Shown here piece by piece: positions 20,214-54,656 of a DNA stretch of 64,000 nt. The stretch covers positions 15,875-79,874 of the forward strand of contig QBMS01000003.1 of NCBI GenBank assembly GCA_003249095.1, in the 5' to 3' direction. The DNA comes from Snowella sp. GTDB lineage: Bacteria > Cyanobacteriota > Cyanobacteriia > Cyanobacteriales > Microcystaceae. The notes below the pieces were generated by a model, which was given only the letters and a program-made list of their open reading frames with translations, was not told the origin of the DNA and searched no databases. The position numbers and the translations under genes were made by a program. How positions within the stretch are numbered: the first letter of the stretch is position 1; each line of letters starts with the position of its first letter.

Positions 20214-20224
20214 AAAAAAATTGG

Positions 20225-26601: not shown

Positions 26602-27529
26602 ATGTACTCAAGTAGCCTAACGGATGAAGAGTGGTTAATCATAGAACCGCTATTGCCCAAGAAAAAGCTGACTTGTCCACTTACATGGACTAAACGAGAA
26701 ATGTTATAGCAGTTCCTGATCAGATGCAGTACAGCAGAAGCCTTGATAAATAAGCATTACAGCCGTCTCAGTGTACCTCATGTCAGCGAAAACCGCCATA
26801 GACGGTATTTTCTATCAGCTTAAAAACGGATGTAATTGGGGCGATTTCCCCAAACATTTTCCTCCCTATTCAACCGTATACTGGTATTACAAACAATGGC
26901 GAAGTCAAGGGATTATCCAAGAAATCATGGAGACATTGCATAAAAGATTGCGGCACCAAGAAGAAAGAAACTTGTGGACGACTCTCATCATGATTGACTC
27001 TCAAGCTGTTAAAAATACCTGCAACGCCAGTGTAGAGACAAAGGGATTTTGTTTTTACAAGTGTACCAACGGTATTAAGCGTCATCTTGCGGTTGATAGT
27101 CTCGGCTTTCCTTTGTTTGCGAATTGCACTCCAGCTAATGTTTCGGATGACCAAGGGCTGATTGAATTATTAACCCTCAATATCGATTATTTTAAATCAA
27201 AACCCTCTGAATTCCCCAAAACAACGATTCTTTTAGATAACGGTTATCATCTTGACACTATCGCAAAAGCTTTAGTCAAAGTTTATCCAGCGATAATGAG
27301 TAAAATCCAGTTTGAACTCTCTCCTAAACCCTCTAAGGCTGAAAAAGCGGAGAAAGGCTTATCGGGATTTGTGCCTGTTAAAACAAGGTGGGTGGTTGAA
27401 AGAAGTAATGCTTGGATGGAGCGATGCAAGTCTTTAGTGAAAAATTTTGAACGCACTTTGGCTCATGCCACCACCAAAATCCATCTTTGCTTTCTCCGAC
27501 TTTTATTACGAAGGTTAGCTGTTTCTTGA
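26602..27529 (+). pseudogene. IS5-family transposase gene interrupted by a ~92-bp insertion
   Basis: The 35-codon N-terminal piece (MYSSSLTDEEWLIIEPLLPKKKLTCPLTWTKREML, stop at 26707) and the remainder (from about AIDGIFYQLKNGCNW, 26795 onward) lie in different frames, separated by unrelated sequence. Confidence 0.7.
26707..26798. repeat. small insertion (MITE-like) inside the IS5-family transposase gene
   Basis: About 92 bp flanked by TA (26705-26706 and 26799-26800); removing it joins ...REML to DGIFYQL in frame. It has weak terminal inverted similarity and, by eye, resembles 22769-22900. Confidence 0.4.
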
Positions 27530-27735
27530 GATACCAAATGGGTTCTATATCAAATTAAATAAAGAAAAGAGTACATAAAAAATATGTAAGAATTTTATTT
27601 TCTAGTAAATACAATTTTTTTATTATCAATAAGAAATAGTAGTAAATGCATAGGATAAATAAAAACCTTACGTAATTACCTCAACAAAGTTCTTGAACAT
27701 TTCGGGGTTTGGTATGTACCTAATTTTGCATATAT

Positions 27736-29175
27736 TTAGTTTATTATAAAAATAAAAAAACAGAAAAAAATCATTAAAATTAGGGGAAAAAAAGATGTAT
27801 TTTTTTCAAAATCTAAAAATTTCAGACCAAAAGCTTTATAAGAATATACTGCAGAATACCAACAATAAAAACCTAAATAACCTGCTAAAGTCCCTACAGG
27901 AAAAGCATATACTCCAATTCGATTGAATAACGTTAGAGCAACAAAAAAATAGATTAGTCCAGCAACACCATTCGCCGTATGCCAAATAATATGATTGGTT
28001 ATACTATATAATTGTATATGCATTGCACCATAACGTTCGGCAAACATACTCAGACCCATAACTCCCCATAATAAAGGACTTACAAATTCAGCATTACTAC
28101 CAACTAACTTTAGCAATGGTTTTGCTAATACTCCAATCACAACAAATCCAGCGACATAAGTCCAATAAGCTAACCTTATTCCCCGTTTTGCTACTTGTAT
28201 TTGCTTTTCTAAATTTCCTTCTGAACGAAGTTTTGCCAGTAAAGGAAGTTTACTATAAAAAGGAGCTTGAGAAAATTGACTAACCATTTGTATAAGCCGC
28301 AAAGCAAGTAAATATGAAGCTACCCCCGACGCTGTACCGAATTGAGCATAAATAATACCACTGAGTTGAACTAATCCATAGCCCATGAAAACACCTAAGC
28401 CACTACGCCAAGCACTCGGCCATATGGCTTCAAACACTACAATGTCAATTTTTTGACTAGTAAATTTTTGAAAACGACCGCCTTCGACTTTTGAACATAA
28501 CCAATAGTTACGCCAAATATTGAGTATTAACCAGCCTTGATTAGCGACTACTAATCCCAGCAAACCACCGCCAGCTAATAAAACGATAATACTCGTTCCT
28601 ATTGCGCCTAATGATGTTAATATTTCCCAGCGACGTAAAAGAGCAATTTGATTCAGACCTTGAAGATAAGAGCTATAAGAATTTCCTAAAAGGGTAAAAC
28701 CAGAAGTAAGTAAAATTACTCCCCAAGCTATCCAGCCAAATCTTATGTCAGACGTCTTAGAAATGGGACTAAACATTGCCCAAGTACCAATCGTCGCTAA
28801 CAAAAAAAATGATATAACAGTCAAGCGTAAATATATTGCTCGCATGGTGGAGCAGATTTTTTCAATTGTTTGCCAATTAGCGTCTGTTAGTTTAGCCGAT
28901 TTGTTCGAATTACGAAGATCTTTTATCTCAAAACTACTTAAACCTCCCATTCCATAAGCAATAACTCTCGAAAAAGTCGGACTGAAACCTACATCAGTTA
29001 ATAACTGCAAACTAATAACTGTGCTGAAAAGATACCATAAAGCAATTTCTGTTGTGCTTAGGCGATTAAGGACTAACGGCAAAACTAAAATTAGGGAAAG
29101 CGAACGTGTTGCAAAACTTCCCCACGTCATTAATGTAGGAGAATTCCAAAAACGTTCTATGTATTTATTGTTCAA
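27736..29175 (-). CDS. wzx: oligosaccharide/polysaccharide flippase (Wzx, MOP superfamily)-like
   Basis: 479 aa with about 12-14 TM segments and the length and topology typical of Wzx. The ORF-track start is a TTG; the first ATG is 45 nt downstream. Confidence 0.7.
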   Translation of the reverse strand: MNNKYIERFWNSPTLMTWGSFATRSLSLILVLPLVLNRLSTTEIALWYLFSTVISLQLLTDVGFSPTFSRVIAYGMGGLSSFEIKDLRNSNKSAKLTDANWQTIEKICSTMRAIYLRLTVISFFLLATIGTWAMFSPISKTSDIRFGWIAWGVILLTSGFTLLGNSYSSYLQGLNQIALLRRWEILTSLGAIGTSIIVLLAGGGLLGLVVANQGWLILNIWRNYWLCSKVEGGRFQKFTSQKIDIVVFEAIWPSAWRSGLGVFMGYGLVQLSGIIYAQFGTASGVASYLLALRLIQMVSQFSQAPFYSKLPLLAKLRSEGNLEKQIQVAKRGIRLAYWTYVAGFVVIGVLAKPLLKLVGSNAEFVSPLLWGVMGLSMFAERYGAMHIQLYSITNHIIWHTANGVAGLIYFFVALTLFNRIGVYAFPVGTLAGYLGFYCWYSAVYSYKAFGLKFLDFEKNTSFFPLILMIFFCFFIFIIN

Positions 29176-29212
29176 TTTTTATTAATTTTTATTAATAATC
29201 TTTCATGATAAT

Positions 29213-30136
29213 CTAATTACTTAATCCGACAGGAATATATTTTGGCTCCCAAATGCCCCAAGGCATTCCATATTTGCCAGACTTTTTATAAAAATCAGCT
29301 AAATTTTCTTTCAAGTAGTAGCATTCACTATATTTTTTCAATATTAAAGATGGATCTTGATTCTCTATAGGTTTAGCACCAAAACGCTTTTCAAAATCAA
29401 AAGAAGAAAAACAGTAACCATTGGAAGGTTCATGAAACCATGTGGTTGGCTTATCTGTTCCCGAAGTTGTAACTGCCCACAATCCATTAGGCTTAAGTAT
29501 TCGATTAATCTCTTGTAAAGCTCCATCAAGAATATCTGTTGGTATATGCTCTAAAGACGAAAGAGAGACAACCGCATCAAAAAAGTCCGATGAAATTTCG
29601 GGTAATTCAGACAAATTACCAATCTTCCAATTAATCGACCCAACAGGAACGTTCAATAAACCAACTGAATCTCGCCACTTCTCACTATTCGTACTTAAGT
29701 CTGAATATTTGAAAAAATTATACCACTTATACATTGGTAAAGACTTTATCCATTTTTTAAATTGAAATTCTGGGTTAGAGTTAAACGAAGAAAGAAGTTC
29801 GCTATAACTTGTTGGGCTAAAGCTTGGCAAGCTCTCTAGCTCAGTATGGTAACGTTGTTTATAGGCGTTTAGCGGTTCAGATAAAGATAAATCAATGTTA
29901 ATAACATGAAAGCCCATTTCAGCTAATAAAAATTGGGTAGGGCCAAATCCGCCTCCAGCATCTAATACCTTTAATCCTTTTGGCCATTGTTTTACCTTGG
30001 AATATATCCAATGTAGATCAGTTATGTAGTGCCATCCTAATTGAGTGCGTCTTGTCAATTTTAGAAAAGACTCAACATCTTTGAAATCTTCGGAACCGAT
30101 TTGTTTTTCTGGGTCTATAAATTCGTAACGTAACAT
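29213..30136 (-). CDS. class I SAM-dependent methyltransferase
   Basis: Motif I VLDAGGGFGP, acidic loop VINIDL, and FDAVVSLSSLEH. Confidence 0.7.
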   Translation of the reverse strand: MLRYEFIDPEKQIGSEDFKDVESFLKLTRRTQLGWHYITDLHWIYSKVKQWPKGLKVLDAGGGFGPTQFLLAEMGFHVINIDLSLSEPLNAYKQRYHTELESLPSFSPTSYSELLSSFNSNPEFQFKKWIKSLPMYKWYNFFKYSDLSTNSEKWRDSVGLLNVPVGSINWKIGNLSELPEISSDFFDAVVSLSSLEHIPTDILDGALQEINRILKPNGLWAVTTSGTDKPTTWFHEPSNGYCFSSFDFEKRFGAKPIENQDPSLILKKYSECYYLKENLADFYKKSGKYGMPWGIWEPKYIPVGLSN

Positions 30137-30152
30137 AAATTTTAGAGTTTAA

Positions 30153-30944
30153 TTAACTAGGATTTTTTATCAGAGATTTAATCTTGCTAAGAAAACGCGA
30201 AAAGAAAGACATTTGTTTAATCAGATTTTCAGAACCACGAGGACTGTAAACTGATTTAATCAATTCAATTATCTTAATCTCTTCTTCAGATCGAGGATTC
30301 TGACGTAAGAAGAGATAATCAGCTTGGGAAGCAAAAGAATTTTTATAACCAGTCCATCCAGCAACATAAAAACCCAAATCGGCTAAATAACTTTTAACTT
30401 TATCCTCAGTAACTAAGTTTTGATAGAGTGGATAACGAAATAACTCTAATTCTAGTCCAAGACAGTCATTTTTAAGATAATTTTTAGCACCCTCCAAAAC
30501 AAAAAACTCTCCACTCTGAGTATCACTTTTGAGAAAGTGAAAAGGAATATGATTACCTAGTGATTGCTCAAGTTCTTCTAAAATAGTATCTAGTTTTTTG
30601 ACAGGACATAGAAACTCTTTTGTAATTTGTGATCTATCTATCCAAGTATCATTTAATTTTTGATTTCCTTCCAGACGAAGACTTTTAAAATTTTCTTGAA
30701 CCCAATCAAAGTTTTGTTTTAAAAGTGAAGATCCCGTTCCTTCAGAGCCAGATACATAAAAAGGAGCTTGACCATCAAAATTCCAAACAGCAGAATCATA
30801 TTTTAAATTTTTCCCACTCAAAACAGGAGTCTCATTCGGCTCAAAACTTAGGCTCCAATCAATATAATTTGCATGATTTTTCCAAGGAAAATCAAATCCA
30901 CCAACAGAGCCAACATCAATAATATTAATTTTAGGATTAGTCAT
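30153..30944 (-). CDS. FkbM-like methyltransferase (tentative)
   Basis: N-terminal IIDVGSVGG resembles the FkbM-family IDVGAN(I/V)G motif. Size and context also fit. Confidence 0.45.
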   Translation of the reverse strand: MTNPKINIIDVGSVGGFDFPWKNHANYIDWSLSFEPNETPVLSGKNLKYDSAVWNFDGQAPFYVSGSEGTGSSLLKQNFDWVQENFKSLRLEGNQKLNDTWIDRSQITKEFLCPVKKLDTILEELEQSLGNHIPFHFLKSDTQSGEFFVLEGAKNYLKNDCLGLELELFRYPLYQNLVTEDKVKSYLADLGFYVAGWTGYKNSFASQADYLFLRQNPRSEEEIKIIELIKSVYSPRGSENLIKQMSFFSRFLSKIKSLIKNPS

Positions 30945-30947
30945 AAT

Positions 30948-31694
30948 TTAAACAGGGTCATGTAAACGGGAACCAATACCACCATCTAACTCCAAAGAAG
31001 CTCCATTGATGAATTGGGCATCTTTTGATGCTAAAAATAAAGCTAACTTTGCTACCTCTGACGGTTCTGCAATTCTACCAACAGGGTGCATAGAAGATAA
31101 AATTTCATAAGCTTCGCCTTGATCATCAAAGCCAGCTAAAAGCATAGGCGTAGAGACAGCCGCAGGGCAAATAGCATTTATTCTTACTTTTGAACCTAGT
31201 TCAACCGCCATACTCTTAGTTAATCCTACCAAAGCCGCTTTACTAGTAGCGTAACAGCTAAACTCTGGCTTCGTTAACTTAGCATGAATGCTACTAATGT
31301 TAATGACAGATCCTCCCGCTTTTTCCAAAAATAAAAATAACTTCTGTGTCAATAAGAAAGGAGAGATTAAATTGACATTAAGGGTTTGGTTCCAATCGGC
31401 AACAGTAATTTTTGCTATTGGCCTAATAGCTTGAATTGCGGCGTTATTGATTAATACATCAAGTCCATGTGAACTTCTTAAGAGAGATTCTATGTGACAA
31501 ATAATTTCTAAACAATAATCATTATCACTACAAATCTTGTCTAAATCTGCTTTTATAAAAAAATCAGCATCTACTAATTTTTCTGCTCGATCTAGAGCAA
31601 TAACTTTATAACCATCATTCCTAAAAACAGAACAGAGGGATTCTCCGATTCCCCCAGATGCTCCTGTAATCAGTGCAGTCTTTTTATCTGTCAA
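30948..31694 (-). CDS. short-chain dehydrogenase/reductase (classical SDR)
   Basis: TGASGGIG cofactor motif, NNAA, and catalytic YATSKAA. The apparent start codon is TTG. Confidence 0.85.
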   Translation of the reverse strand: MTDKKTALITGASGGIGESLCSVFRNDGYKVIALDRAEKLVDADFFIKADLDKICSDNDYCLEIICHIESLLRSSHGLDVLINNAAIQAIRPIAKITVADWNQTLNVNLISPFLLTQKLFLFLEKAGGSVINISSIHAKLTKPEFSCYATSKAALVGLTKSMAVELGSKVRINAICPAAVSTPMLLAGFDDQGEAYEILSSMHPVGRIAEPSEVAKLALFLASKDAQFINGASLELDGGIGSRLHDPV

Positions 31695-31700
31695 ATAACT

Positions 31701-32636
31701 TTACACTCCCAAAAAGCTAAATAGTAATTGAATCGCCTGATGACTAGCACGATGAACCGCATCAACAGTATTCGAGCCATTATGAGAGCCAAAAATACAT
31801 TGTTCAAAACTACGAAGCGGAGAATCTAAAGGAAGCGGCTCAATTTCAAAAACATCTAAAGCTGCGGAATGAACCTTACCCGATGATAAAGCGTCAATTA
31901 AGGCCAACTCATCAATCAAAGGGCCACGGGCGACATTGACAATTTTTACTGCTGGTTTAACTTTTGCAAAAATATCAGCATTCAGTAGATGATAATTATC
32001 GGGAGTTAAGGCACAGGTTAACACAACGAAATCTGCTTCTTCTAATCTATTTGGCCAAACAGATGATTGTACTTGGTTTAAATCATCTTGGGCTTGAAAA
32101 TAAGGATCATAAGCAATGACTTTTAGATCAAAAGCCAGCAAACGTTTGGCCGTATTTCTACCGATGTCTCCAAATCCAACCAAAGCAACAGTTTTACCCG
32201 CTAAAGAAATTCCCGAAGGTTTAATCCAATGTCCTTTTCTAACTTCTCGATCTATCTGAAAAGTTTGTCTTGCTAAACCAATCACATAACCAACTGCGAC
32301 ATCAGCAACTTCACCTCCGAACATTCGGGGCGTATTAGTTATTGGAATACCTAGTTCCTTAGCTGCTTTAAAATCAACATTATCAACACCAACTCCCCAC
32401 TTAACTGCCGCCTTCAATTTTCCTTGATGGCCTGCCTTAAATACTTCAGCGTTTGCAGGATCATCTCCAATGATCCAACCATCGAATTGGGGTAATAATT
32501 CTTTAAGTTCTTCTACTGATAACGTTTGTTTAACAGGAGGGCAATAAATATCTATTGCTTTTTCGGAAAAAAGATGTCTAAATTCATCAATTAATCCCAG
32601 CATTGGGGGGCAGGTAACTAAAACCCTATAGCTCAT
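31701..32636 (-). CDS. D-isomer-specific 2-hydroxyacid dehydrogenase (phosphoglycerate dehydrogenase-like)
   Basis: NAD motif VGFGDIGRNTAKRL, NVARGPLIDE, and catalytic His context GSHNGS. It overlaps the upstream gene by 4 nt. Confidence 0.85.
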   Translation of the reverse strand: MSYRVLVTCPPMLGLIDEFRHLFSEKAIDIYCPPVKQTLSVEELKELLPQFDGWIIGDDPANAEVFKAGHQGKLKAAVKWGVGVDNVDFKAAKELGIPITNTPRMFGGEVADVAVGYVIGLARQTFQIDREVRKGHWIKPSGISLAGKTVALVGFGDIGRNTAKRLLAFDLKVIAYDPYFQAQDDLNQVQSSVWPNRLEEADFVVLTCALTPDNYHLLNADIFAKVKPAVKIVNVARGPLIDELALIDALSSGKVHSAALDVFEIEPLPLDSPLRSFEQCIFGSHNGSNTVDAVHRASHQAIQLLFSFLGV

Positions 32637-33310
32637 AATTTCTTTTCTCGATTGAGGTATAAAAATTCAGCAACACGGAAATCAATTTCTTCATCGATAT
32701 CCCAAGCTTCATCTCGATCCATTTCAAATAAAAGTGGATTATATCCAATACGATTATTTTTTTCTCGCAAGACCTTTTCGCTAAAAATATAGAGGTTAGA
32801 ATTTTCTTCAAAAACTGGGGGTAAATCCTGCGTTCTTAATAAAATACTCGGATCATGATTTATCGCTTTACCATCAGCATCATAAAACCGAGTCTGTAAC
32901 CTAGTTACAGTAAATAAACTATCATGGTCAGGACTATTAAGGAATAAATCAATTGCTTTAGAAATAGTTTCTGGACGAAGTAAAGGATTCGTACTATGAG
33001 TTTGAATATAAAAATCAGACGAGACTTGACTAACCGAATTTAAAAGAACGTCATTCATTGGAATTGAGCCGTCTCTCAAATGCTCTGGACGAACTAAAAC
33101 TTTAACCGTTGGAAAAATTTTACTAACTTCTTCAATTATTACTGGACTGTCAGTATCAATACAAACTTGAGTTATTTGAGGGCAGTGTAACAAACTTTCG
33201 ACAATATAATGATAGAGGGGCTTGCTAGCGAAAATTCGATAGTTTTTACCACGTACACGTTCACTAGAGTGACGCATCGGAACAAAAGCAACAATTTTTG
33301 GAAAGCTCAT
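32633..33310 (-). CDS. acylneuraminate (CMP-sugar acid) cytidylyltransferase family protein
   Basis: The N-terminus VAFVPMRHSSERVRGKNYR matches the P-loop-like PxRxxSxRxxxKN signature of CMP-NeuAc/CMP-Kdo-type synthetases. 225 aa. Confidence 0.7.
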   Translation of the reverse strand: MSFPKIVAFVPMRHSSERVRGKNYRIFASKPLYHYIVESLLHCPQITQVCIDTDSPVIIEEVSKIFPTVKVLVRPEHLRDGSIPMNDVLLNSVSQVSSDFYIQTHSTNPLLRPETISKAIDLFLNSPDHDSLFTVTRLQTRFYDADGKAINHDPSILLRTQDLPPVFEENSNLYIFSEKVLREKNNRIGYNPLLFEMDRDEAWDIDEEIDFRVAEFLYLNREKKL

Positions 33311-33326
33311 CAGCTTAGGATAAAGT

Positions 33327-33974
33327 TTATGTAATAGATAAAGGACACAAAATTGCTCTAGAGGGTGCTCCTTCGAGACCTTTAAGTTTAATCGGTAAAC
33401 AAATTAATTCGTAATTACCAGCAGGGACATCCGTTAGATTTAACCCTTCAATAATTACAATATCTGACTGAAGAAGAACGATATGAGTTTCAGGCCCATC
33501 GTAAAAACGCTGTATTGATAGATAGTCAATACCAACAAGAATAACTCCTTGATTAACAAGCCATTCTGCTGCATCAAAACTTAAAGCAACAAAATTAGCT
33601 TCAAATGTACTTGAATTAATTGAATTCCACAACCTAGAATTTTTTGTCTTGAAGAGTATTCGCTTAAGATTATTCGGTAACTTCAAACTCTCTAAAAAAT
33701 CTGCTGTTATAACTTCTATCTCTCCTACATCAATAACTGTAGCAATACCAATTAAAGTTTCCAAGGGTAACTCATCGACGCTTCTACCAGAAGAAATAAA
33801 GTGTAGTGAAGCATCTACATGAGTTCCTGTATGAACACTCATATAGATTGTCGTATCGTTAGCGATATCACCTTGATCTAAGTCTAAGGTTCGTTGAAAT
33901 TCAATTGGCTGGGTATCTGGCCAAACGGGAAGTTGAGGAGAAATTGGGACTGAAATATCATAATATTTTTTCAA
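33327..33974 (-). CDS. cyclase-family protein (kynurenine formamidase-like fold)
   Basis: HTGTHVDASLHF matches the HxGTHxDxPxH metal motif of the putative cyclase family. TTG start; it overlaps the upstream GT2 gene by 17 nt. Confidence 0.7.
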   Translation of the reverse strand: MKKYYDISVPISPQLPVWPDTQPIEFQRTLDLDQGDIANDTTIYMSVHTGTHVDASLHFISSGRSVDELPLETLIGIATVIDVGEIEVITADFLESLKLPNNLKRILFKTKNSRLWNSINSSTFEANFVALSFDAAEWLVNQGVILVGIDYLSIQRFYDGPETHIVLLQSDIVIIEGLNLTDVPAGNYELICLPIKLKGLEGAPSRAILCPLSIT

Positions 33975-34926
33975 AATATTCCTCTTTTGTTAGCTTGTAG
34001 TCAATTATTCTATCTTCATAAGATTTTTGTGATTCTTTTTGTTTCTCCATTTTTCGAGGATAATAAAATGTCTGTTTTACCTCACTCGTAATAATACCAT
34101 GTTCAAGAAATCCTTTATAAGTCCCCCAAAACTGCATAAATCGAAAGATAGGGATAGAAAACAGGTTTCTGAAAAAAATGTTGTCATGCCAAGCATGGTA
34201 GTAATCGGTAACAGTATTAGTAATTGTAAATTTTACGAACTCTCTAAACCTAAATATTTCGCTAGGAAAAATTTGCTTAAAAGCTAAAGCTTCTCTATAA
34301 TATCTACTATAAATTTTCCTAAAGGTTTCATTATGAACATGAACAATCTCCGCATCAGAAACGTAGGCTATTTTGTAGCCCAAAGATAGAATTTTTTTTG
34401 ACCAGTCCAAGTCTTCCAAGCCAGTCAAATTTTCATCATATGGAATTTTATTCCAAAGTTCTCTACGGATTGCCGCGTTAGCATTATTGCAGAAAGGGTG
34501 TTTTTGATTGAGATTAGACTTTTCGGAGAACCATTTGGCAAAAATTTGATGTTCAGTATATTTTGTCGTTTCGTTTCCTCTCTGCTTTCCATAAACTAAT
34601 CCAACCTCATGATCAACGAAAGGTTCTAAAATTTTTTCCAGCCAGTCCTTGTAAATTGGATAAACATGAGCACTCGCAATGACGATAAAATCGCCCATAG
34701 CTTTCTCACAGCCAATATTTAATGAGCGGCCAAAAGAAAATTCTTCCGGTTTAATAGAAACAATTCTTACTGGGAATCTTGAGGCAATTTTTAATGTCGC
34801 ATCAGCAGATCCCGAATCCACGATAATTATTTCAATATCTCGTAGAGTTTGCTCCATTATTCCAGTTAAAAGGCGACCAATGTGCTCTTCTTCGTTGTAG
34901 CAACGGACAATAATTGAACATTTCAT
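33958..34926 (-). CDS. family 2 glycosyltransferase (first gene of the AT-rich block)
   Basis: CSIIVRCYNEE...IIVDSGSADAT, with a DXD-like EDLD. Confidence 0.85.
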   Translation of the reverse strand: MKCSIIVRCYNEEEHIGRLLTGIMEQTLRDIEIIIVDSGSADATLKIASRFPVRIVSIKPEEFSFGRSLNIGCEKAMGDFIVIASAHVYPIYKDWLEKILEPFVDHEVGLVYGKQRGNETTKYTEHQIFAKWFSEKSNLNQKHPFCNNANAAIRRELWNKIPYDENLTGLEDLDWSKKILSLGYKIAYVSDAEIVHVHNETFRKIYSRYYREALAFKQIFPSEIFRFREFVKFTITNTVTDYYHAWHDNIFFRNLFSIPIFRFMQFWGTYKGFLEHGIITSEVKQTFYYPRKMEKQKESQKSYEDRIIDYKLTKEEYFEKIL

Positions 34927-36915: not shown

Positions 36916-37479
36916 TTATTCTAGCAGCCAATTAAAAATATCTCCCACTGTTAACTGTAAATTATTCGCAAAATCTGGAACAGGAAGCAATTGTTCTGGT
37001 TGATCTAGCCAATCCAAAGATTGATTCGGGTAAAAAATCAATATTGCTTTTTCTTTGGGATCAATTAACCAACCTAATTGGGTTCCATGTTTGAGACTAT
37101 GAAGAATTTTAGCAATAACTTTAGTAGAGCGTTGTTCAGGAGAAAGTATTTCAATCATCCAGTCAGGCGCGATCGCGAAAAGATTAGCGATACTACCATC
37201 TTCATTACGGGGAATCCTATTCCAACTGAAAATAGAAACATCTGGCACAATGGCTCTATTGGCAAAAACACACGGTAATTCTGGAAAAGCTCTCGCAATT
37301 TTTTGCGGTTTAGTAATTGCATTAATCGCTATAATTAATTCACCTTGGATGGTGCTATGTTCACCTTGGGGCATGAATTTTTGGATGATTGTACCATCAA
37401 TATATTCGCTGGCTGGTTTGGTTTCAGATTCAGCCAGAAATGCTTCTAGGGTCAATTCTTTCGATGGGGCTTGTACCAT
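36916..37479 (-). CDS. Uma2-family (DUF820) putative endonuclease
   Basis: Pattern typical of the abundant cyanobacterial Uma2 proteins (EYIDG..I.KFMPQGEHS, PDVSIF, APDWMIEILSP). The ATG at 37479 is preferred over the TTG at 37494. Confidence 0.75.
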   Translation of the reverse strand: MVQAPSKELTLEAFLAESETKPASEYIDGTIIQKFMPQGEHSTIQGELIIAINAITKPQKIARAFPELPCVFANRAIVPDVSIFSWNRIPRNEDGSIANLFAIAPDWMIEILSPEQRSTKVIAKILHSLKHGTQLGWLIDPKEKAILIFYPNQSLDWLDQPEQLLPVPDFANNLQLTVGDIFNWLLE

Positions 37480-37521
37480 TAGAGCTTTAAGCAATATAAC
37501 AATAAAGATAATTATAATAAA

Positions 37522-46479: not shown

Positions 46480-47253
46480 TTACATTTCTGATTCTTCCGT
46501 CGTTGTGCCTCTTAATAAATTTAAAATTGTGTCGGTGTAATGATAAAAGTCAGGTTCACGCTTGATTTTATAGGTGCGATTTTCGGGTAATTCAATGGTT
46601 AATTCCTGTTGAATTGTTCCTGGTCTCGCGCTCAATACATAAATGCGTTGGGACAAAAAAACTGCCTCTTCTACATCATGGGTAATCATCAAAATACTGC
46701 ATTTAATCCGTTGCCAAATTTCAATCAGATATTCCTGCATTCTTTCTTTGGTTTGAACATCTAATGCACCAAAGGGTTCATCCATTAATAACACCTTTGG
46801 ATGACAGGCTAGGGAACGGGCGATCGCGACCCGTTGTTTCATGCCGCCCGAAAGTTCCTTGGGGAAGGAATCGGCAAATTGAGTTAAACCTACAATATCA
46901 AGGTAATAACAGGCGAGTTCCCAGCGTTCTTTTTGGGGTAAGCCCTGAAGTTTTAAGCCAAATTCTACATTTTTTTGCACCGTCATCCAAGGATAAAGAG
47001 TATAACTTTGGAAAACTAAGCCGCGATCGGCTCCAGGCCCTTTTACCTCCGTTCCATCAACAGTAATTTTGCCAGAAGTCGGTGTTTCTAACCCTGCAAT
47101 CATCCGCAAAAGAGTCGATTTTCCTGAACCAGAAGCCCCCACCGCACAGACAAATTCGGAAGTGTCGACGTGCATATTAATATCTTTTAGGACAATAATA
47201 GAACCTCGTTTAGTTGAAAAAGATTTATTGAGATTAGTGATTTCTAAGTGCAT
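46480..47253 (-). CDS. ABC transporter ATP-binding protein (NitT/TauT family), last gene of the riboswitch-led operon
   Basis: Walker A GASGSGKST, signature LSGGMKQR, and Walker B LLMDEPFGALD. The ATG at 47253 is preferred. Confidence 0.9.
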   Translation of the reverse strand: MHLEITNLNKSFSTKRGSIIVLKDINMHVDTSEFVCAVGASGSGKSTLLRMIAGLETPTSGKITVDGTEVKGPGADRGLVFQSYTLYPWMTVQKNVEFGLKLQGLPQKERWELACYYLDIVGLTQFADSFPKELSGGMKQRVAIARSLACHPKVLLMDEPFGALDVQTKERMQEYLIEIWQRIKCSILMITHDVEEAVFLSQRIYVLSARPGTIQQELTIELPENRTYKIKREPDFYHYTDTILNLLRGTTTEESEM

Positions 47254-47349
47254 ATCGTTTCCTGTTTGAATCAAACATTAAAGTATTTTTTTGTGAATAG
47301 GAAATCTATTTTTTATTTCTAAAAGCTTATAAAAAATAAGTGTATTTAT

Positions 47350-48165
47350 TTAACGATTAACTGACCATTTACACGTCCAACGTAGTAACAAACGAAAGCT
47401 TAAATCTAAAGCAAAACCAATTACGCCTAAAACAATTAAACAAGCAAAAATTTCATCGGTTCTAAGGAATTTTTGAGCTAACACAATACGCTTTCCTAAT
47501 CCATTATCGGCGGCTAATAATTCCGCGACGACGACCAAATTCCAAGCGGCGGCCATATTAATCCGAAAAGCATCCAAAATATTGGGAATCACATAGGGCG
47601 TAATAACCTGCAATAAAATTTGTTTACGTAAGCCACCTAATGTATAAGTCACCTCAATTAGTTCCTTGGGAATAAATTTAACGGCATCCATAATCATCAG
47701 AGTATTAAAAAAAATTGTCCCAATGAAAATGAGCATTACTTTTGAGGTTTCGCCAATGCCTAAATAAATCACTAAAAGGGGAATAAAAGCAGGGGCAGGC
47801 ATATAACGAACAACCCCAATAATTGGCTCCGTCAAACTACGAATACTCGGAAAAGCTCCCATTAAAATACCCAAGGGAATCGCAAAAAATCCTCCTAAAA
47901 AAAATCCACCAACAACTCTTAAGAAACTTGTAACTGTATCTTGAATTAAAAAACCTTGTTGCCAAAGATTGACTAATGCCTGAATAACCGCTAAGGGTGA
48001 AGGAAGAAAAACGGATTCAATAGGGGCAAAACTAGATACTAATAGCCAGATTACCAAGGGAATTACAATCGAAAGAGTCATTAAGACCCACTTCAATGAT
48101 TCAGAAATTTCTTCAGAAAGTTGCCAAAAAATAGTCGGTTTCAGAAGTTTAGGAGTCGTCGTCAT
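47350..48165 (-). CDS. ABC transporter permease (NitT/TauT family)
   Basis: 271 aa with about 6 TM segments and an EAA-like loop region, as in binding-protein-dependent permeases. Confidence 0.9.
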   Translation of the reverse strand: MTTTPKLLKPTIFWQLSEEISESLKWVLMTLSIVIPLVIWLLVSSFAPIESVFLPSPLAVIQALVNLWQQGFLIQDTVTSFLRVVGGFFLGGFFAIPLGILMGAFPSIRSLTEPIIGVVRYMPAPAFIPLLVIYLGIGETSKVMLIFIGTIFFNTLMIMDAVKFIPKELIEVTYTLGGLRKQILLQVITPYVIPNILDAFRINMAAAWNLVVVAELLAADNGLGKRIVLAQKFLRTDEIFACLIVLGVIGFALDLSFRLLLRWTCKWSVNR

Positions 48166-48351
48166 TTTGTCTTCTCTTATGAATAGAATAAAGATTGAGA
48201 CGGTTAATATTATCGAGAAATTAGAACATTATTTTTGATTGATACAGCACTTTGTGGTTAAGCCCTATACAGGATAAGAACATAATATATTATGTCCCTA
48301 CAAATATTTTGTCAGCGATCACAATGCAATTGGCTGTAATTTAGGTATTAC

Positions 48352-49386
48352 TTAAGCTTTATCTGGATTGAGTGTTTTAACAAACTGAGAATCTAAAATT
48401 TTCGTTAAATCAGGAACTTTCTTAATAAAACCAACATTTTTCATAAAATCTGCCATTTTTGTCGCCGCATAGGGCATACTTTTCATTGTATTACCAGGAC
48501 TAAAGGCTTCAATATTCTCTGCGATCGTAAAAAATCGAGTCCCTTCTTTATAGAGTTTTAATTCTTCTGGACTAATTCCTGCTCGCTTCGCCATGATTTG
48601 ATCGGATTTTTCAGGATTTTTTTCCATGAAATCCCGAACTTCAAACCAGGTTTTAACTAAGGCTTGAACTTGTTCAGGTTTTTCTTTTATTAATTTTTCA
48701 GTCACTACTAAAAGATCAGGGATAGCTCCAGGAAAATCCTTAGAGCTAGCAATCTCCTTCGATCCTTTTCGTTTTAAAGCTGTTAACCAAAAAGGAGGAA
48801 AGGCTCCTACTCCATCAACTTTTCCCGATGCAAATGCTGCGGCGGCGGCCCCTGTTTCAAGGGGGACAATCTGCACATCTTTGCGAGACATTCCTGCTTT
48901 TTCTAAGACTAAGCTCAGTAAAAAATCATCAACAACTCCTTCTTCAACGGCAATTTTTTTACCTTTTAAATCTTTAACGCTATTAATTTCTTCCGCGACA
49001 ATAATTTTGTCATTACCTGCCGAGTTGTCATTGACTAAAACGGCAACTTCTCCATTAATTGCTTCTCCTGCAAAGGCGATCGTATCGTTTAGGGTTTGAC
49101 TATTTCCGTCTAATTGTCCTGCGGCCAAAGCTTGTAAGGATTCGAGATAACCATCAAACCATTTCATTTGCACATTAATATTATTTTTAGTGAATAAACC
49201 CTCTTCTTCCGCGATCGCCCAGGGCCACCAGCCCGCCCAATTACTATAACCGATGACGATAGGAGGTGTATTGGTTACAGGATTATTGGCAGTGGGAATT
49301 TCTTTAGGAGCCTGATTACAGCTAACCGTTAATAGCAAGGTGCTAAAAAATACCAACAGTAAAGAAAAGAAATTACGTCGTTTCAT
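48352..49386 (-). CDS. ABC transporter periplasmic substrate-binding protein (NMT1/THI5-like)
   Basis: Lipoprotein-like signal (MKRRNFFSLLLVFFSTLLLTVSC) and an NMT1-type binding-protein body. The ATG at 49386 is preferred. Confidence 0.85.
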   Translation of the reverse strand: MKRRNFFSLLLVFFSTLLLTVSCNQAPKEIPTANNPVTNTPPIVIGYSNWAGWWPWAIAEEEGLFTKNNINVQMKWFDGYLESLQALAAGQLDGNSQTLNDTIAFAGEAINGEVAVLVNDNSAGNDKIIVAEEINSVKDLKGKKIAVEEGVVDDFLLSLVLEKAGMSRKDVQIVPLETGAAAAAFASGKVDGVGAFPPFWLTALKRKGSKEIASSKDFPGAIPDLLVVTEKLIKEKPEQVQALVKTWFEVRDFMEKNPEKSDQIMAKRAGISPEELKLYKEGTRFFTIAENIEAFSPGNTMKSMPYAATKMADFMKNVGFIKKVPDLTKILDSQFVKTLNPDKA

Positions 49387-49459
49387 GATTGATATAGTGA
49401 TATATGACAAGACTTAATAAATAGTAAATAACAAATTTTTATTTATAACCGTTACCGAT

Positions 49460-50149
49460 TTAACCGTTCAAACAAACAGGCATCTTAATTTGGCTTTTCA
49501 CCCAGCCAAACCAGTCATTTAAACCTTCCCCTGTTTTAGCAGAAAGGAAAATAATTTTTACACTTGGATTCATGGAGCGAACATTATTTTCTAATTTTTT
49601 TAAATCAATTTCTAAATAGGGAGCGAGATCTAATTTAGTGACTAATAAACAATCCGCTTCTTGAAACATGATCGGGTATTTAAGGGGTTTATCTTCCCCT
49701 TCCGTAATGCTTAATAATGCCACCTTAGCGTGTTCTCCCACTTCAAATTCCGCAGGACACACTAAGTTACCAACATTTTCTACAAATACTAAATCAAATT
49801 GTTTAGGATCATAATTTTCTTTTAATTGATGAATTCCTCCTGCTACCATCCGTGAATCTAAATGACAGGAACGCCCCGTATTAATCGCAATTACAGGAAC
49901 TCCATATTGTCGTAGGTGATCGGCATCTAATTCGGTAGTCATGTCGCCTTCAATTACTGCCATTTTGATTTGATGTTGCAGAGCTTCGAGGGTTTTTTCT
50001 AGTAACACAGTTTTGCCTGCTCCAGGACTACTCATGAGGTTTAAACAAGTAATTCCCCATTCATCAAAATGTTCGCGATTGTGATCGGCTCCTGTTTGAT
50101 TGGCGTGAAGAAGATTCATTTCTAGGGCTGCGTCAAAGGTTTGGTGCAT
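49460..50149 (-). CDS. ghaB: HypB-like Ni-binding GTPase, predicted accessory protein for the adjacent hydrolase
   Basis: G1 motif [10 protein letters not shown] motif [16 protein letters not shown], and TKLD (NKxD-like). The ATG at 50149 lies one nt after the hypA-like stop. The symbol follows my recollection of Synechocystis sll1079. Confidence 0.8.
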
Positions 50150-50150
50150 T

Positions 50151-50507
50151 TTAATTAATAAGGGAATATTCAATGTGATCAATTTTTAATTCTCTGCCTG
50201 AGCGAATATCATCCATCGGCGATCGGCAGATTGGACAGGAGTATTGCAAACCGATTTCAGGTTGATATTCTTTTTGACAAACATGACAATAGGCTATTAA
50301 GGGAATATCTTTAATGACTAATTCCACACCATCTAAAAAAGTATTCTGAGTCTGTACTTCAAAGGCAAACTGCAAACTAACGGGTTCAACGCAGGTAAAT
50401 TTACCCACAATTAAATGAATTTTTTCGATTTTAAGCTTTTCAGGTTGGCTATCATACCAATCTTGAACAGTTATCATCAAAGCCTTTGTCATGTCGGTTT
50501 CGTGCAT
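50151..50507 (-). CDS. ghaA: HypA-like Ni metallochaperone, predicted accessory protein for the adjacent hydrolase
   Basis: N-terminal MHE Ni-binding motif and a zinc site, CHVCQ...CPICRS. 118 aa. The symbol follows my recollection of Synechocystis sll1078. Confidence 0.8.
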
Positions 50508-50524
50508 CGTGGTTAGCTTAGTAT

Positions 50525-50884
50525 TTAGGAATTACTCTTTGTTTTTTCTAATCGCATTTTTTGAGCGACTTCGGTAGTTAAATCTCCTTTGCTATCAGCT
50601 TTTAAAACACAAATTAAAATGGTTAATTCATCTAAATTACCATCAGTCATCCAATCGACTAAAAATCCTAGATAATCTTGAACACTTTTTTCTGCTTGCC
50701 TCGGATTTTTCCAGACACGCGCCATTGACAAATTGTTCGTAATACCAGCAGAAGATTCATCTGCTTTTTCCTTGTCAAGAGGGGGCAAGGCATTTTCAGC
50801 GGCCGCATAGATGTTGAATTCAGAAACTAGGTTTAAGACATAACCCACCTTTTTATTAATAGGAGTTCCAAATCCTTTCGCCAT
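50525..50884 (-). CDS. hypothetical protein embedded in the hydrolase/Ni-chaperone operon
   Basis: 119-aa ORF with an ATG start, 17 nt upstream of the hypA-like gene and 55 nt downstream of the hydrolase gene. No TM segment and no recognisable family. Confidence 0.55.
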   Translation of the reverse strand: MAKGFGTPINKKVGYVLNLVSEFNIYAAAENALPPLDKEKADESSAGITNNLSMARVWKNPRQAEKSVQDYLGFLVDWMTDGNLDELTILICVLKADSKGDLTTEVAQKMRLEKTKSNS

Positions 50885-50939
50885 AATTTTCTCTTCATAA
50901 ATAAGTTATTTGTGTCTCTAATTATCCATTTTTTTTACC

Positions 50940-52118
50940 TTAGAGCCAAGGTTCATCTACGGCCATATTCGCTTCAGAATGAATGTAATAGGGCTTTTCT
51001 TTGCGGGGTAATTGACCCGATAAAACCAAATGGGCGATCGCATCACAAATGACACGAGTTGCCATCAAAGAAGTCATATCACTAATGTCGTAGGGGGGGG
51101 AAACTTCCACGACTTCCATGCCACAAATAGGAGCTTTTTGGATGATTTTTCCTAATAAAGCCAAGGCTTCACGGGGTAATAATCCCCCAGGTTCGGGCCA
51201 ACCTGTACCAGGGACAAAACCTGCATCAATGCAATCAATATCAAAACTAATCCAAACGCAATCTGTTCCATCTAAAGCGCGTTCGAGGGCAAATTCGGCG
51301 GCGGCATCAATACCTTGTTCCACAATATCGGTGACGGTGAGAATGTTTGTTGCTCGTTCCCGACAAACTTTTACGCCTTGACGGGGAACTTGCCAACCGC
51401 CGATGCCTAATTGTACTAGGTTTTTTGCAGGGGCATTTTTCATGTTGGTCGCGTGGAACCAGGGACAGGTGTGCATCCGTTCATCTAGATCTGTTTCTTG
51501 GGTATCTACATGGCGATCGAAGTGAATAATACCGACTTTTTTATCGCCTAAGTGCCGACAAATGCCGCGAACGGTCGGAAAACCGATGGAATGATCGCCC
51601 CCTAAAATAATGGGAAAGGCTCCCGAACTAAACACATGGGCAACGCCTTTCGAGATTTGATCAAAGGATTTTTCATTGTTAGCAGGAATAGTAAAAACAT
51701 CACCCACATCACAGAGAGTAATTTGTTCCCGCAGATCAACCCCCATTTCAAAGTTATAGGGCGTGTACAGAGCTGAAATACGACGGATTCCCTGGGGGCC
51801 AAAACGAGTTCCAGGTCGGTAGGTCGTGCCTGAATCGTGGGGAACGCCCATAATAGCCACATCATACTCTCCGACTTTCCGCACATCCTCTAAATAAGGG
51901 GCTTTCATGAAGGTATTAATGCCCGCATAGTGGGGTAATTCTCCCCTGGAAAAGGTGGGAATGGTGCGATCGCGGATACTATCTGCCGCCTCTAGCCCGT
52001 AGGTTAAGCCTTGGGAAACTTCCTGTTGCCAACCTGTGAGTGGTAACTGACTCTCTTTTTCCAGAGCGCGCTGGGCTTCGGAGGAATCGGGGGGTCGAAA
52101 AGATGGTTGCTCGGACAT
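50940..52118 (-). CDS. gdmH: arginase/agmatinase-fold ureohydrolase, predicted Ni-dependent guanidine hydrolase
   Basis: Ureohydrolase metal motifs GGDHSI, HFDRHVD and SFDIDCID. The ATG at 52118 is preceded by GAGGTGAG. Function is inferred from the guanidine-I riboswitch and the HypA/HypB-like partners. Confidence 0.8.
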   Translation of the reverse strand: MSEQPSFRPPDSSEAQRALEKESQLPLTGWQQEVSQGLTYGLEAADSIRDRTIPTFSRGELPHYAGINTFMKAPYLEDVRKVGEYDVAIMGVPHDSGTTYRPGTRFGPQGIRRISALYTPYNFEMGVDLREQITLCDVGDVFTIPANNEKSFDQISKGVAHVFSSGAFPIILGGDHSIGFPTVRGICRHLGDKKVGIIHFDRHVDTQETDLDERMHTCPWFHATNMKNAPAKNLVQLGIGGWQVPRQGVKVCRERATNILTVTDIVEQGIDAAAEFALERALDGTDCVWISFDIDCIDAGFVPGTGWPEPGGLLPREALALLGKIIQKAPICGMEVVEVSPPYDISDMTSLMATRVICDAIAHLVLSGQLPRKEKPYYIHSEANMAVDEPWL

Positions 52119-52185
52119 AAATCTCACCTCAAAAAACAACTACCCAGGACACTTCAACAAAACTGATTTTTTCAGTTCTCGTTAA

Positions 52186-52310
52186 AGTCTCCCGGGCTTT
52201 TATCCCGCCGTGTAGCTAACTTGGATATTTAAATTGGGTTACAAGTTCAGCCTGCTTCTCTCGGACCTGACACTTAAGATATTTTTCCTTAAATCGGAAC
52301 CCTAGAAACA
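52186..52310 (-). promoter_or_regulatory. guanidine-I riboswitch (ykkC-yxkD motif) aptamer
   Basis: The minus strand reads CTAGGGTTCCG (52305-52295), then GGTCCGAGAG (52267-52258), then ACACGGCGGGATAAAAGCCCGGGAGA (52213-52188). These are the three most conserved blocks of the ykkC consensus, in the right order and spacing, about 70 nt upstream of the hydrolase start. Confidence 0.85.
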
Positions 52311-53123
52311 ACTTTGTTCAAAGTTTAAAAGATTCAAATTCAAAAAACAGTATCAATCGTCACAATCGTAGAATTTTCTTTCATGGTAAGTAGAGAAAAA
52401 AAATTTTCCCATCTCTAATATTTAGAACAGTTTTAATTTTTTTAGATGAGTTCTCGGATCATAAAATTATTTCTAAAAAAAGAAGATTACTACTTTTTTC
52501 GCCATATTCATTATCGTTTACCACAATGATAAGTCCTTTAAATCTCGCTTTCAATCCTAAAATTTTTTAGTGTTTAAATGTTTTTCGCAGTTTCAAACAC
52601 TTAATTATTGTCTGTTTTTGAGGAATGTAGATGTTGATTATTGTAAAAAATCTTTCCACCTAATTCTTACCTAATTCTTAATCAATCAACTTAGTCAATT
52701 ATCATGGAAAGATAAAAGTTTAAATTTTACCAAGCAAATTTTTAGATTTTTTTTAGTTAAAATTCTAATTTTTGGTATTTCTTCAGAAGATAAATATTTA
52801 AGATTCACATTTATTAGCTTTTTTGAATAAGCCTCTAGAAATTGATAGTTCTATATAACAAATTTTACTCTAGCAAGAGGCTGGACCCCCTTTTAAATAC
52901 CTAGCTATAGACGACTTCTCTCTTTTAGGGCTTTTTGAAAATTATTTCTCTATATTTTCTAAAGAGAATGGCGTTAATTGATATTATTATATTTTAAACA
53001 TCCTAAGATCCTTATTTTAATCAAGCTTTATTAAAGACCCATCGTTCCAATTCCTGCTTTTTCTCATGTTTTGCCTTTAATTCAAAAAAATTACTGTTTT
53101 TCCTTACTTTCCCCGTCGAATTC

Positions 53124-54656
53124 ATGCCTGATTCAAATACTTCCTTTGCCAGCTATTATCACGAACAAACCAAGTATCATCCAGAAACGATCGCGTCAAA
53201 AAACAAAGTTTTGGACTGGGGAAGTCAGCCCTCAGTTTTTAAGGAGTATAAAATCGGGACAATCTACGATTTACAGCCGTTTTTGACCGCTTCTTTGACT
53301 GAAGATCCTGATACAAGAGCTTGGGAAAGATTATCTCGCCTTTTAGCCTGTAGCTATGGTCTGACCGCAAAAATTCCCAGCATGGGAAAGCCCATTTATT
53401 TGAGAACGGCTCCCTCGGCTGGGGGACTGTATCCCGCAGAGGTCTATTTGATTTCCAGAGGAACAAAGCTTTTACCCTCTGGTTTGTATAGCTATCAACC
53501 CCTGACCCATTCCTTGATCCATTTTTGGGCTAGTGAAGTTTGGACAAAGTTGAAAGAAGCTTGTTTTAATCATTTAGCCCTGAAAAATACGAGTTTAGTG
53601 CTGGTGACAACGGCAATTTTTAATCGTTCCGCCTGGCGTTACGAAGACCGAGCCTATCGACGAATTTTTCTGGATACGGGTCATCTTTTGGGAAATATTG
53701 AGTTGGCTGGCGCGCTCTATGGATATCATCCCCACTTAATCGGCGGTTTTCGAGATCAGGCGATGAATGATCTGCTTTATCTTGATGCCGATCAAGAAAG
53801 TGTGATGACCGTGATTCCTTTGACCGATTTACAAACGGCTAACTCCGCGATCGTGGAATCTCCCCTCACGGCCTTGCCTTCTCCCATTGGTCGCGATTTT
53901 CCCTCAGTCAGGGCAGGAGAATTACTCAAGGCTTTTCACCACGCAACGGAAATTCAGGAGCCACTATCGAAGGATTTATTGCGATCTCAAGTCACTCATC
54001 AGGGAGCGGAAGATAAATATAATTTTCCCTTTTGTCTAAAAATCTCTACTCAGACATCTCCGATCAATTGGGGAAATAATCTCGCTGAACTAGAAAAAAC
54101 CATTCTCCGTCGCCGCTCAACCAGGGCCTATACGGGAGAATTTTTAACCCTAGATGAATTGAAGGCATTGCTAAGTTTTACCTATCAGTCTCAAGATTAT
54201 GAAACACAAAATCTCGACTCCAGCCCTGATTATTTTGATTTAAGTTTAATTCAAACCTTTATTGCCGTTTCAGGGGTAACGGGTCTGGAAGAAGGCTGTT
54301 ATTATTACGCGCCCCAAGCCCAGGAGTTACGCCAAATTCGGTTTAAAAACTTTCGTTCTGAATTACACTATCTCTGTTTGGGTCAGGATTTAGGACGGGA
54401 TGCGGGGGCTGTGATCTTCCATACGGCGGATCTCCAACAGGCTGTCCAAAAATACGGCGATCGCGCCTACCGATATCTCCATCTAGATGCGGGACACCTG
54501 GGACAACGCCTAAACCTAGCCGCTATGCAATTGGGTTTAGGGGTGAGTGGCATTGGAGGGTTCTTTGACGATCAGGTCAATGAGGTGCTAGGTATTCCCG
54601 AAGATGAAGCGGCACTATATATTACAACCCTTGGCCGTCCACGGTTTTTGTTCTAG
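53124..54656 (+). CDS. SagB/ThcOx-family dehydrogenase (tandem nitroreductase-like domains)
   Basis: 510 aa. Two halves each carry nitroreductase-fold signatures (PSAGGLYP, RAYRRIFLDTGH in the first; RRRSTRAY, RAYRYLHLDAGH in the second). N-terminal YHEQTKY is typical of SagB-type domains. Confidence 0.7.
   Translation: MPDSNTSFASYYHEQTKYHPETIASKNKVLDWGSQPSVFKEYKIGTIYDLQPFLTASLTEDPDTRAWERLSRLLACSYGLTAKIPSMGKPIYLRTAPSAGGLYPAEVYLISRGTKLLPSGLYSYQPLTHSLIHFWASEVWTKLKEACFNHLALKNTSLVLVTTAIFNRSAWRYEDRAYRRIFLDTGHLLGNIELAGALYGYHPHLIGGFRDQAMNDLLYLDADQESVMTVIPLTDLQTANSAIVESPLTALPSPIGRDFPSVRAGELLKAFHHATEIQEPLSKDLLRSQVTHQGAEDKYNFPFCLKISTQTSPINWGNNLAELEKTILRRRSTRAYTGEFLTLDELKALLSFTYQSQDYETQNLDSSPDYFDLSLIQTFIAVSGVTGLEEGCYYYAPQAQELRQIRFKNFRSELHYLCLGQDLGRDAGAVIFHTADLQQAVQKYGDRAYRYLHLDAGHLGQRLNLAAMQLGLGVSGIGGFFDDQVNEVLGIPEDEAALYITTLGRPRFLF

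Follow-up and report, generated by a model that had tools for sequence, protein, structure and literature searches.

A probable guanidine-assimilation module in a Snowella-like cyanobacterial chromosome, with an additional small gene of a recurrent family

A cluster of seven genes headed by a guanidine-I riboswitch is present in a stretch of 64,000 nucleotides from the Snowella sp. contig QBMS01000003.1 (assembly GCA_003249095.1, positions 15,875 to 79,874 of the forward strand), which is referred to here as the window. The locus is very likely the cyanobacterial guanidine-assimilation module that was first characterized in Synechocystis PCC 6803, carried in this case by a Snowella-like (Merismopediaceae) chromosome. 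The Synechocystis system, sll1077-sll1082, is reportedly also the subject of Funck et al. 2022 (Nature 603:515). Its genes are arranged in the order gdmH-ghaA-ghaB-gimABC and are preceded by a validated guanidine-I riboswitch (PMC12704784, PMC12186494); papers on the PCC 6803 system include Wang et al. 2021 (PMC8390497) and Itzenhauser et al. 2025 (PMC12704784). An initial annotation of the window, made from the sequence without database searches, had noted this resemblance. It was accurate on gene order and protein families, but the second gene of the cluster, a 119-aa open reading frame (ORF) called orf119, lies outside the published system.

The ORF listing of the window contains seven co-directional ORFs on the minus strand at positions 46480-52139 (Table 1). 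Protein families were assigned with Pfam and NCBIfam release 20.0, and RNA elements were assigned by an Rfam 15 scan of the whole 64-kb window. Coordinates and families agree with the gene order given in the initial annotation, and every motif quoted there was found, namely GGDHSI, HFDRHVD, and SFDIDCID in the hydrolase, MHE and CxxC..CxxC in the HypA-like protein, and GAGKT and CH in the HypB-like protein. The start of gdmH is most likely ATG 52118 rather than TTG 52139, because the resulting N terminus (MSEQ...) matches that of the PDB chain and a GAGG Shine-Dalgarno sequence is located upstream. The ghaB start was moved to ATG 50149, which is 1 nt past the ghaA stop, and gene callers give an equal length of 229 aa in three related loci (L081-L083). 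Moving the gimA start to ATG 49386 exposes a lipoprotein-like signal peptide, MKRRNFFSLLLVFFSTLLLTVSC. For gimC, an alternative ATG start is available at 47253. Spacers had been described as short or zero throughout. This is not so for ghaB-gimA (73 nt), gimA-gimB (186 nt), or gimB-gimC (75 nt), whereas gdmH-orf119 and orf119-ghaA are separated by 55 and 17 nt, respectively. The folding of the 186-nt spacer is no better than that of shuffled sequence (z = -0.78).

The product of gdmH is 88.5% identical over 389 residues to Synechocystis Sll1077 (PDB 7ESR/7OI1; E 1.6e-245, 817.7 bits). The protein has an arginase fold (PF00491, E 8e-77), and the three hydrolase motifs listed above, which are the metal-ligand blocks, are all identical to those of 7ESR in the alignment. 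The next PDB families match at about 1e-40 to 1e-49 and include proclavaminate amidinohydrolase (the best non-GdmH match, with 171 bits), guanidinobutyrase, and metformin hydrolase subunits. Agmatinase models are the top NCBIfam matches, yet both score below their cut-offs (TIGR01230, 169.8 versus 174.3; NF002564, 206.9 versus 302). Thus, the earlier placement of the enzyme with Sll1077 and apart from agmatinases is borne out. We infer that the window hydrolase is a GdmH ortholog, and that Ni-dependent guanidine hydrolysis follows from its identity to the characterized enzyme. Sll1077 hydrolyzes guanidine and not agmatine (PMC12186494), and Synechocystis GdmH requires Ni and permits growth on guanidine (PMC12704784, PMC12186494, PMC11399263).

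A scan of one genome per species produced at least 582 relatives of GdmH, and the best 80 loci were fetched for inspection of gene order. Among these best 80 of at least 582 cyanobacterial relatives, the order gdmH-ghaA-ghaB-gimA-gimB-gimC is the rule. The closest proteins, with 97-98% GdmH identity, are found in Merismopediaceae and in Snowella metagenome-assembled genomes (MAGs), and Microcystis comes next. The ratio of nonsynonymous to synonymous substitution rates (dN/dS) of gdmH relative to Microcystis is 0.04.

The two putative metallochaperone genes are coupled to gdmH in the same orientation, and this coupling is also found in most of the best 80 related loci, with ghaA next to gdmH in nearly all of them. 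GhaA matches PF01155 (E 3e-29) and scores 121.9 bits against the TIGR00100 (hypA) cut-off of 88.1, and GhaB matches the CobW/HypB family PF02492 and scores 309.9 bits against the TIGR00073 (hypB) cut-off of 121.2. The 64-kb window has 50 other ORFs that reach 110 aa, and Pfam scans detected no hydrogenase or urease structural genes among them, in agreement with what the initial annotation had stated.

Upstream of gdmH, the covariance-model scan that had been proposed as a check on the riboswitch yielded a match to RF00442 of 77.2 bits (gathering score 63, E 5.3e-12), which is the sole Rfam match across the window. In an alignment of the leader from the window and seven relatives, the aptamer core is invariant throughout. 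Downstream, the 3' strand of aptamer helix P3, CCCGGGAG, can pair with the conserved sequence UCCUGGG (52149-52143) to form a long hairpin, which is followed by a U-tract and then a Shine-Dalgarno sequence. This hairpin has a predicted energy of -34.6 kcal/mol (RNAfold) and is part of the minimum-free-energy fold for the entire leader. Its stem is kept in the eight aligned sequences, in which 88.5% of cells are paired, compared with 32-54% in slid controls, and three of its pairs have changes on both sides. The expression platform is therefore predicted from these sequences to be an intrinsic terminator that competes with P3, and the riboswitch to be an ON switch. A terminator that shares a strand with the aptamer is a standard architecture of transcriptional ON switches. 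The leader of the Synechocystis operon, which carries the same RF00442 element, binds guanidine with a dissociation constant (Kd) of ~58 uM and gives 4-5-fold induction (PMC12704784).

A putative binding site for NtcA precedes the aptamer. The box aligns with a perfect GTA-N8-TAC sequence in four Microcystis loci, and its TGT..ATAC columns are invariant in the alignment. A putative -10 element of the form TAN3T, which is conserved in the aligned relatives, follows the box at a distance that fits the NtcA-activated promoter class. Transcription is predicted to start at about 52316-52314, at the 5' end of the aptamer. NtcA binding upstream of gdmH has been demonstrated in Synechocystis (PMC12704784). 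Beyond these elements, the intergenic region at 52317-53123, which separates the gdmH promoter from a divergent gene at 53124, is ~800 nt in length and unusually long for a promoter region. Its GC content is 26%, compared with 35-47% for genes, and neither an Rfam match nor an ORF of 60 aa or more is found in it.

The last three genes of the cluster presumably encode a guanidine importer. GimA matches NMT1_2, NMT1, and SsuA_fam (TIGR01728, above cut-off). The residues W59, W62, D135, F205, and D233, through which the Synechocystis protein contacts guanidinium, correspond to W50, W53, D126, F196, and D224 in the window protein; this correspondence was deduced from a constant offset of 9 rather than from a direct alignment to Sll1080. 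The Synechocystis guanidine importer GimABC is the product of sll1080-1082, and the Kd of its GimA subunit for guanidine is 97 nM (PMC12704784). The Synechocystis cluster comprises two transcription units with NtcA promoters before the leader and before gimA, and the latter promoter was verified by a reporter fusion and a point mutant (PMC12704784). In the window, the 73-nt spacer between ghaB and gimA contains a GT-N10-AC block and the sequence TACTAT, both of which are conserved across Snowella and Microcystis relatives. This conservation suggests that the block may be part of a second promoter, as in Synechocystis. As a separate observation, the same spacer in Microcystis novacekii (L005, ~4270-4430) has an insertion of ~100 nt with a G/C-rich palindrome, ccccccttatcaaggggggc, which comes between the promoter-like block and gimA and resembles a miniature repeat element.

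From the gene content, orthology, riboswitch match, alternative terminator, promoter-like elements, and GimA contacts observed here, the biochemical workings of the module can be inferred as follows. Under nitrogen limitation, NtcA would, by homology, activate the promoter whose start is at the 5' end of the aptamer. In the absence of guanidine, the 3' strand of P3 would pair with UCCUGGG to form the terminator, and transcription would end before gdmH. Binding of guanidine would lock P3, block the terminator, and allow transcription of gdmH-orf119-ghaA-ghaB. On the strength of the identity between GdmH and Sll1077, GhaA and the GTPase GhaB would then load Ni2+ into the binuclear site of GdmH, which would hydrolyze free guanidine to urea and ammonium. 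GimABC would import guanidine with high affinity, and is probably also expressed from an NtcA-type promoter of its own, located between ghaB and gimA.

Several observations weigh against parts of this reading. By the NCBIfam equivalog models, GhaA and GhaB count as the hydrogenase factors HypA and HypB. The NtcA box of the window departs from the consensus at one position (GTG instead of GTA), and the gimA-proximal box matches GTA-N8-TAC only partly, with a register that shifts by 1 nt in Microcystis. A simple terminator scanner passed over the leader hairpin, whose loop and stem are above the limits of the scanner; promoter and terminator matches called by scanner in the window were no more numerous than in shuffles. 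If default database labels were followed, the cluster would encode the agmatinase SpeB2 of polyamine metabolism, HypA and HypB for hydrogenase or urease, and a sulfonate or taurine importer. TIGR00100, TIGR00073, and TIGR01728 all exceed their cut-offs, and agmatinase models are the highest NCBIfam matches of the hydrolase, as this account would have it. However, both agmatinase models stay under their cut-offs, Sll1077, to which the enzyme is 88.5% identical, is a guanidine and not an agmatine hydrolase, a guanidine-I riboswitch heads the cluster, and the Pfam scans revealed neither hydrogenase nor urease genes in the window. Moreover, the GimA of the window keeps the five contact residues of its Synechocystis ortholog, for which a guanidine affinity of 97 nM was measured. 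Orthology effectively refutes the default labels, which are extremely unlikely to describe this locus, and TIGR00100 and TIGR00073 fail to separate GhaA and GhaB from true hydrogenase factors.

A further question is whether all seven genes form one transcript that is wholly riboswitch-dependent, with transporter genes that lack a promoter of their own. The initial annotation described a riboswitch-led seven-gene operon, and the riboswitch and the gene set stand. The genes are all co-directional, and no minus-strand terminator-like site is predicted between ghaB and gimA, such that read-through from the gdmH promoter is plausible. However, gimABC of Synechocystis is a separate NtcA-dependent unit, as established by the reporter fusion and point mutant (PMC12704784), and the spacer in the window has the cross-genus conserved GT-N10-AC box and TACTAT. 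In addition, it would serve scavenging poorly if guanidine already had to be in the cell for the importer to be produced. Because Synechocystis gimABC has its own NtcA promoter and the window keeps an equivalent block, a single seven-gene operon is probably too simple, and we consider complete dependence on the riboswitch improbable.

The component of the cluster that is outside the published guanidine system, orf119, is presumably co-transcribed with its neighbors, and the scanner predicted no terminator between them. Measured against its Microcystis counterpart, the gene has a dN/dS of 0.20 (neighboring genes, 0.04-0.10), and by this measure orf119 is a genuine gene under purifying selection. 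The protein has no match in Pfam, NCBIfam, or PHROGs. A word-based search for relatives produced only six close clusters. A HMMER profile search of 1.84 billion representatives produced 28 clusters, all of 105-127 aa, which share an N-terminal MAKGFG motif and an invariant Trp within the signature MAKGFG...LGYVL.L.P...YAA...F.G.TN.L..A.VW. The members of this family, termed orfX, are all named "hypothetical protein" in databases, and all 28 lack Pfam and NCBIfam matches. The family profile has 0 matches at E<=1 among PDB sequences. A first AlphaFold model of orf119, which was based on 7 close sequences, was unusable, with a predicted local distance difference test (pLDDT) score of 59, and the 28-sequence alignment raised this score to 82. 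The improved model has a predicted beta-beta-alpha-beta-beta arrangement, for which Foldseek found no neighbor in the PDB (best E 0.18, TM 0.25). Metagenomes were scanned with a degenerate DNA pattern for MAKGFG..GY, and the 120 matches, mostly due to chance, were filtered with a hidden Markov model of the family.

In eight lineages (Table 1), a family member is located directly after gdmH and upstream of ghaA. It lies exactly between these genes in seven of the eight; in L219, a gene of the glutathione S-transferase (GST) type separates orfX from ghaA. The proteins in this slot are 30-45% identical to that of the window, except that Microcystis copies are 74% identical. The operon of L185 is as near to that of the window as the Microcystis operon is (95% GdmH identity), yet its orfX protein is only 39% identical. 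The eight lineages fall on three branches of a rough neighbor-joining tree, and a guanidine-I riboswitch was verified in four orfX operons, including those of the window and Synechocystis salina. Other family members occur in unrelated contexts, namely DUF561/CtpA, Uma2/SpoU, BCCP-like, a transglutaminase-like cluster, and a plasmid-like TrwC/ParA region. No homolog in PCC 6803 was obtained in a search seeded with the S. salina orfX protein, although PCC 6803 DNA itself was not inspected, and no literature on an "ssl" ORF between sll1077 and sll1078 was found. A mobile-element origin of orf119 was considered and rejected, as the gene is not flanked by notable direct or inverted repeats.

It is possible, and we propose only tentatively, that the orfX family is an unrecognized optional part of the guanidine regulon that was missed because PCC 6803 lacks the family. 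Its product might assist the maturation or stability of GdmH as a third accessory factor, or it might be a small protein that handles guanidine or acts in regulation. A chaperone role is not committed to, because no His/Cys signature of metal binding is conserved in the family. This absence also speaks for the main alternative, that orf119 is a neutral passenger, that is, a small, fast-evolving gene in a permissive slot that has no role in guanidine metabolism, for and against which we find the case evenly poised. The family occurs in only three of the best 80 gdmH loci (absent from ~95% of the loci examined), sister Snowella and Microcystis genomes do without it, and the system works in PCC 6803, apparently in its absence. 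Furthermore, a GST-like gene with no relation to orf119 occupies the slot in L003, and family members elsewhere sit beside genes of no evident relation. A passenger would not be expected, however, to remain directly behind gdmH and ahead of ghaA in eight lineages at 30-45% identity, spread over three branches of the tree. At least four orfX genes are downstream of a guanidine-I riboswitch, purifying selection is indicated by a dN/dS of ~0.2, and a random passenger among roughly 4000-6000 genes would be expected to recur far less.

Related loci have further variations of the operon. GST-like genes are present at L003:4170-4790 in a Snowella MAG, where the gene is alone in the slot, and at L219:3417-4022 (GCA_011087655.1), where it is beside orfX, and the two are 68% identical. 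GST-like genes are a second kind of cargo that recurs in the guanidine operon, and this specific subfamily may be a second accessory of the guanidine regulon. An SSF-family sodium:solute symporter gene at L219:4915-6003 follows ghaB in place of GimABC, which suggests an alternative route of guanidine (or urea) uptake in some cyanobacteria. The locus of Synechococcus sp. PCC 6312 (L086, CP003558) has gdmH-orfX-ghaA beside glutamate synthase, with no adjacent ghaB or gimABC. No RF00442 match above threshold was found in the 12 kb inspected, and the locus is a reduced, apparently riboswitch-less variant.

Table 1. Features of the guanidine cluster in the window, and lineages in which an orfX gene follows gdmH
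Feature	Position	Strand	Description
Putative NtcA box	52350-52363	-	GTGACGATTGATAC (GTG-N8-TAC); aligned relatives
Putative -10 element	52322-52327	-	TAAACT (TAN3T); 22 nt downstream of NtcA box
Guanidine-I aptamer (RF00442)	52187-52316	-	cmscan, full model 1-107 of 107
Expression platform	52131-52197	-	Long hairpin 52197-52142, then U-tract 52141-52131
gdmH	50940-52118	-	Predicted Ni-dependent guanidine hydrolase ortholog, 392 aa; Sll1077 match, PF00491
orf119 (orfX)	50525-50884	-	119-aa uncharacterized small protein in gdmH-ghaA slot
ghaA	50151-50507	-	HypA-type Ni metallochaperone, 118 aa; MHE N terminus, CxxC..CxxC
ghaB	49460-50149	-	HypB-type GTPase, 229 aa; GAGKT P-loop, CH motif
Candidate internal NtcA-type promoter block	49451-49464	-	GTTAAATCGGTAAC (GTT-N8-AAC); overlaps ghaB stop, then conserved TACTAT
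gimA	48352-49386	-	Predicted guanidine-binding lipoprotein of ABC importer, 344 aa
gimB	47350-48165	-	ABC permease, 271 aa; PF00528 E 2e-24; syntenic in related loci
gimC	46480-47274	-	ABC ATPase, 264 aa from TTG 47274; PF00005 E 2e-32; syntenic in related loci
orfX-slot lineage 1			Snowella-like clade of the window (L001, L081-84, L127)
orfX-slot lineage 2			Microcystis (L006, L007, L120, L173)
orfX-slot lineage 3			L085
orfX-slot lineage 4			Synechococcus PCC 6312 (L086)
orfX-slot lineage 5			Synechocystis salina LEGE 06155 (L097)
orfX-slot lineage 6			L185
orfX-slot lineage 7			L218
orfX-slot lineage 8			L219

The rest of the window is an ordinary cyanobacterial chromosome segment, with genes for PRK, a CpcD-domain FNR, FtsH, MurG, and DnaG and a large glycosyltransferase cluster. 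The 510-aa product of the gene divergent from gdmH (53124-54656, plus strand) contains two stretches of the nitroreductase family (PF00881). A 1281-aa NACHT-family STAND NTPase with HEAT repeats and NCC-H/NCAB1 C-terminal modules is encoded at 8843-12688 (plus strand); this protein is NLR-like, of a kind implicated in bacterial immunity. The ~20-kb cluster at 15270-34926 (minus strand) contains genes for glycosyltransferases, methyltransferases, epimerases, and a cytidylyltransferase, as well as several ORFs without a Pfam match, and is probably a surface-polysaccharide locus. It is interrupted by an IS4/IS5-family transposase gene at 26771-27529 (plus strand). Genes for Uma2-family putative endonucleases are scattered in the window (for example, 36916-37494, minus strand) and also occur beside stand-alone orfX members (L088, L091). 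This proximity to orfX probably reflects only the high copy number of Uma2 genes in cyanobacteria.

The main finding is a further ortholog of a system that was characterized in 2021-2025, and conceptually it is nothing new: experiments in Synechocystis have already demonstrated the enzyme, the chaperones, the importer, the riboswitch, and the control by NtcA. The warning in the initial annotation that such loci are routinely misannotated is well founded, since NCBIfam 20.0 calls hypA, hypB, and an SsuA-family sulfonate binder above cut-off and an agmatinase just below. These labels mislead, and dedicated models for GdmH, GhaA, GhaB, and GimA are needed. The new lead is the orfX family, which recurs after gdmH, upstream of ghaA, and under riboswitch control in Snowella, Microcystis, Synechocystis salina, Synechococcus PCC 6312, and several metagenomic lineages. 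Membership in a riboswitch regulon has repeatedly pointed to functions related to the ligand. For this reason, the family is a cheap and testable candidate in guanidine or nickel-enzyme biology.

Among known systems, guanidine carboxylase operons share with the window a guanidine-I riboswitch, an NMT1/SsuA-type ABC importer, and a role in the assimilation of guanidine nitrogen (PMC12186494, PMC12508155). However, these operons use ATP- and biotin-dependent carboxylation followed by deamination, rather than Ni-dependent hydrolysis, and lack HypA/HypB-like chaperones. The MefH/DmgH hydrolases of metformin and dimethylguanidine resemble the window enzyme in their Ni2+-dependent ureohydrolase fold and their need for co-expressed HypA/HypB-type chaperones (PMC11399263, PMC11271267, PMC10927577), and PDB chains of this type match it at about 1e-39 to 1e-40. 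They differ in that they are proteobacterial and heteromeric, with two ureohydrolase subunits, act on other substrates, and have chaperone genes upstream and no guanidine-I riboswitch.

The likeness to PCC 6803 is far more extensive. Gene order, domain families, and the GimA contact residues are shared, GdmH is 88.5% identical, and the aptamer immediately precedes gdmH in both. An NtcA-type box before the leader and a promoter-like block before gimA are further points of agreement. The window differs from PCC 6803 in its extra 119-aa gene between gdmH and ghaA and in its Snowella-like host. The same operon, complete with an orf119-family gene in the slot, is found in Microcystis aeruginosa (L006, L007, L173) and in S. 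salina LEGE 06155, whose locus also has the riboswitch and whose GdmH is 97.7% identical to Sll1077. The orfX proteins of Microcystis and S. salina, which are annotated only as "hypothetical protein," are 74% and 38% identical, respectively, to that of the window.

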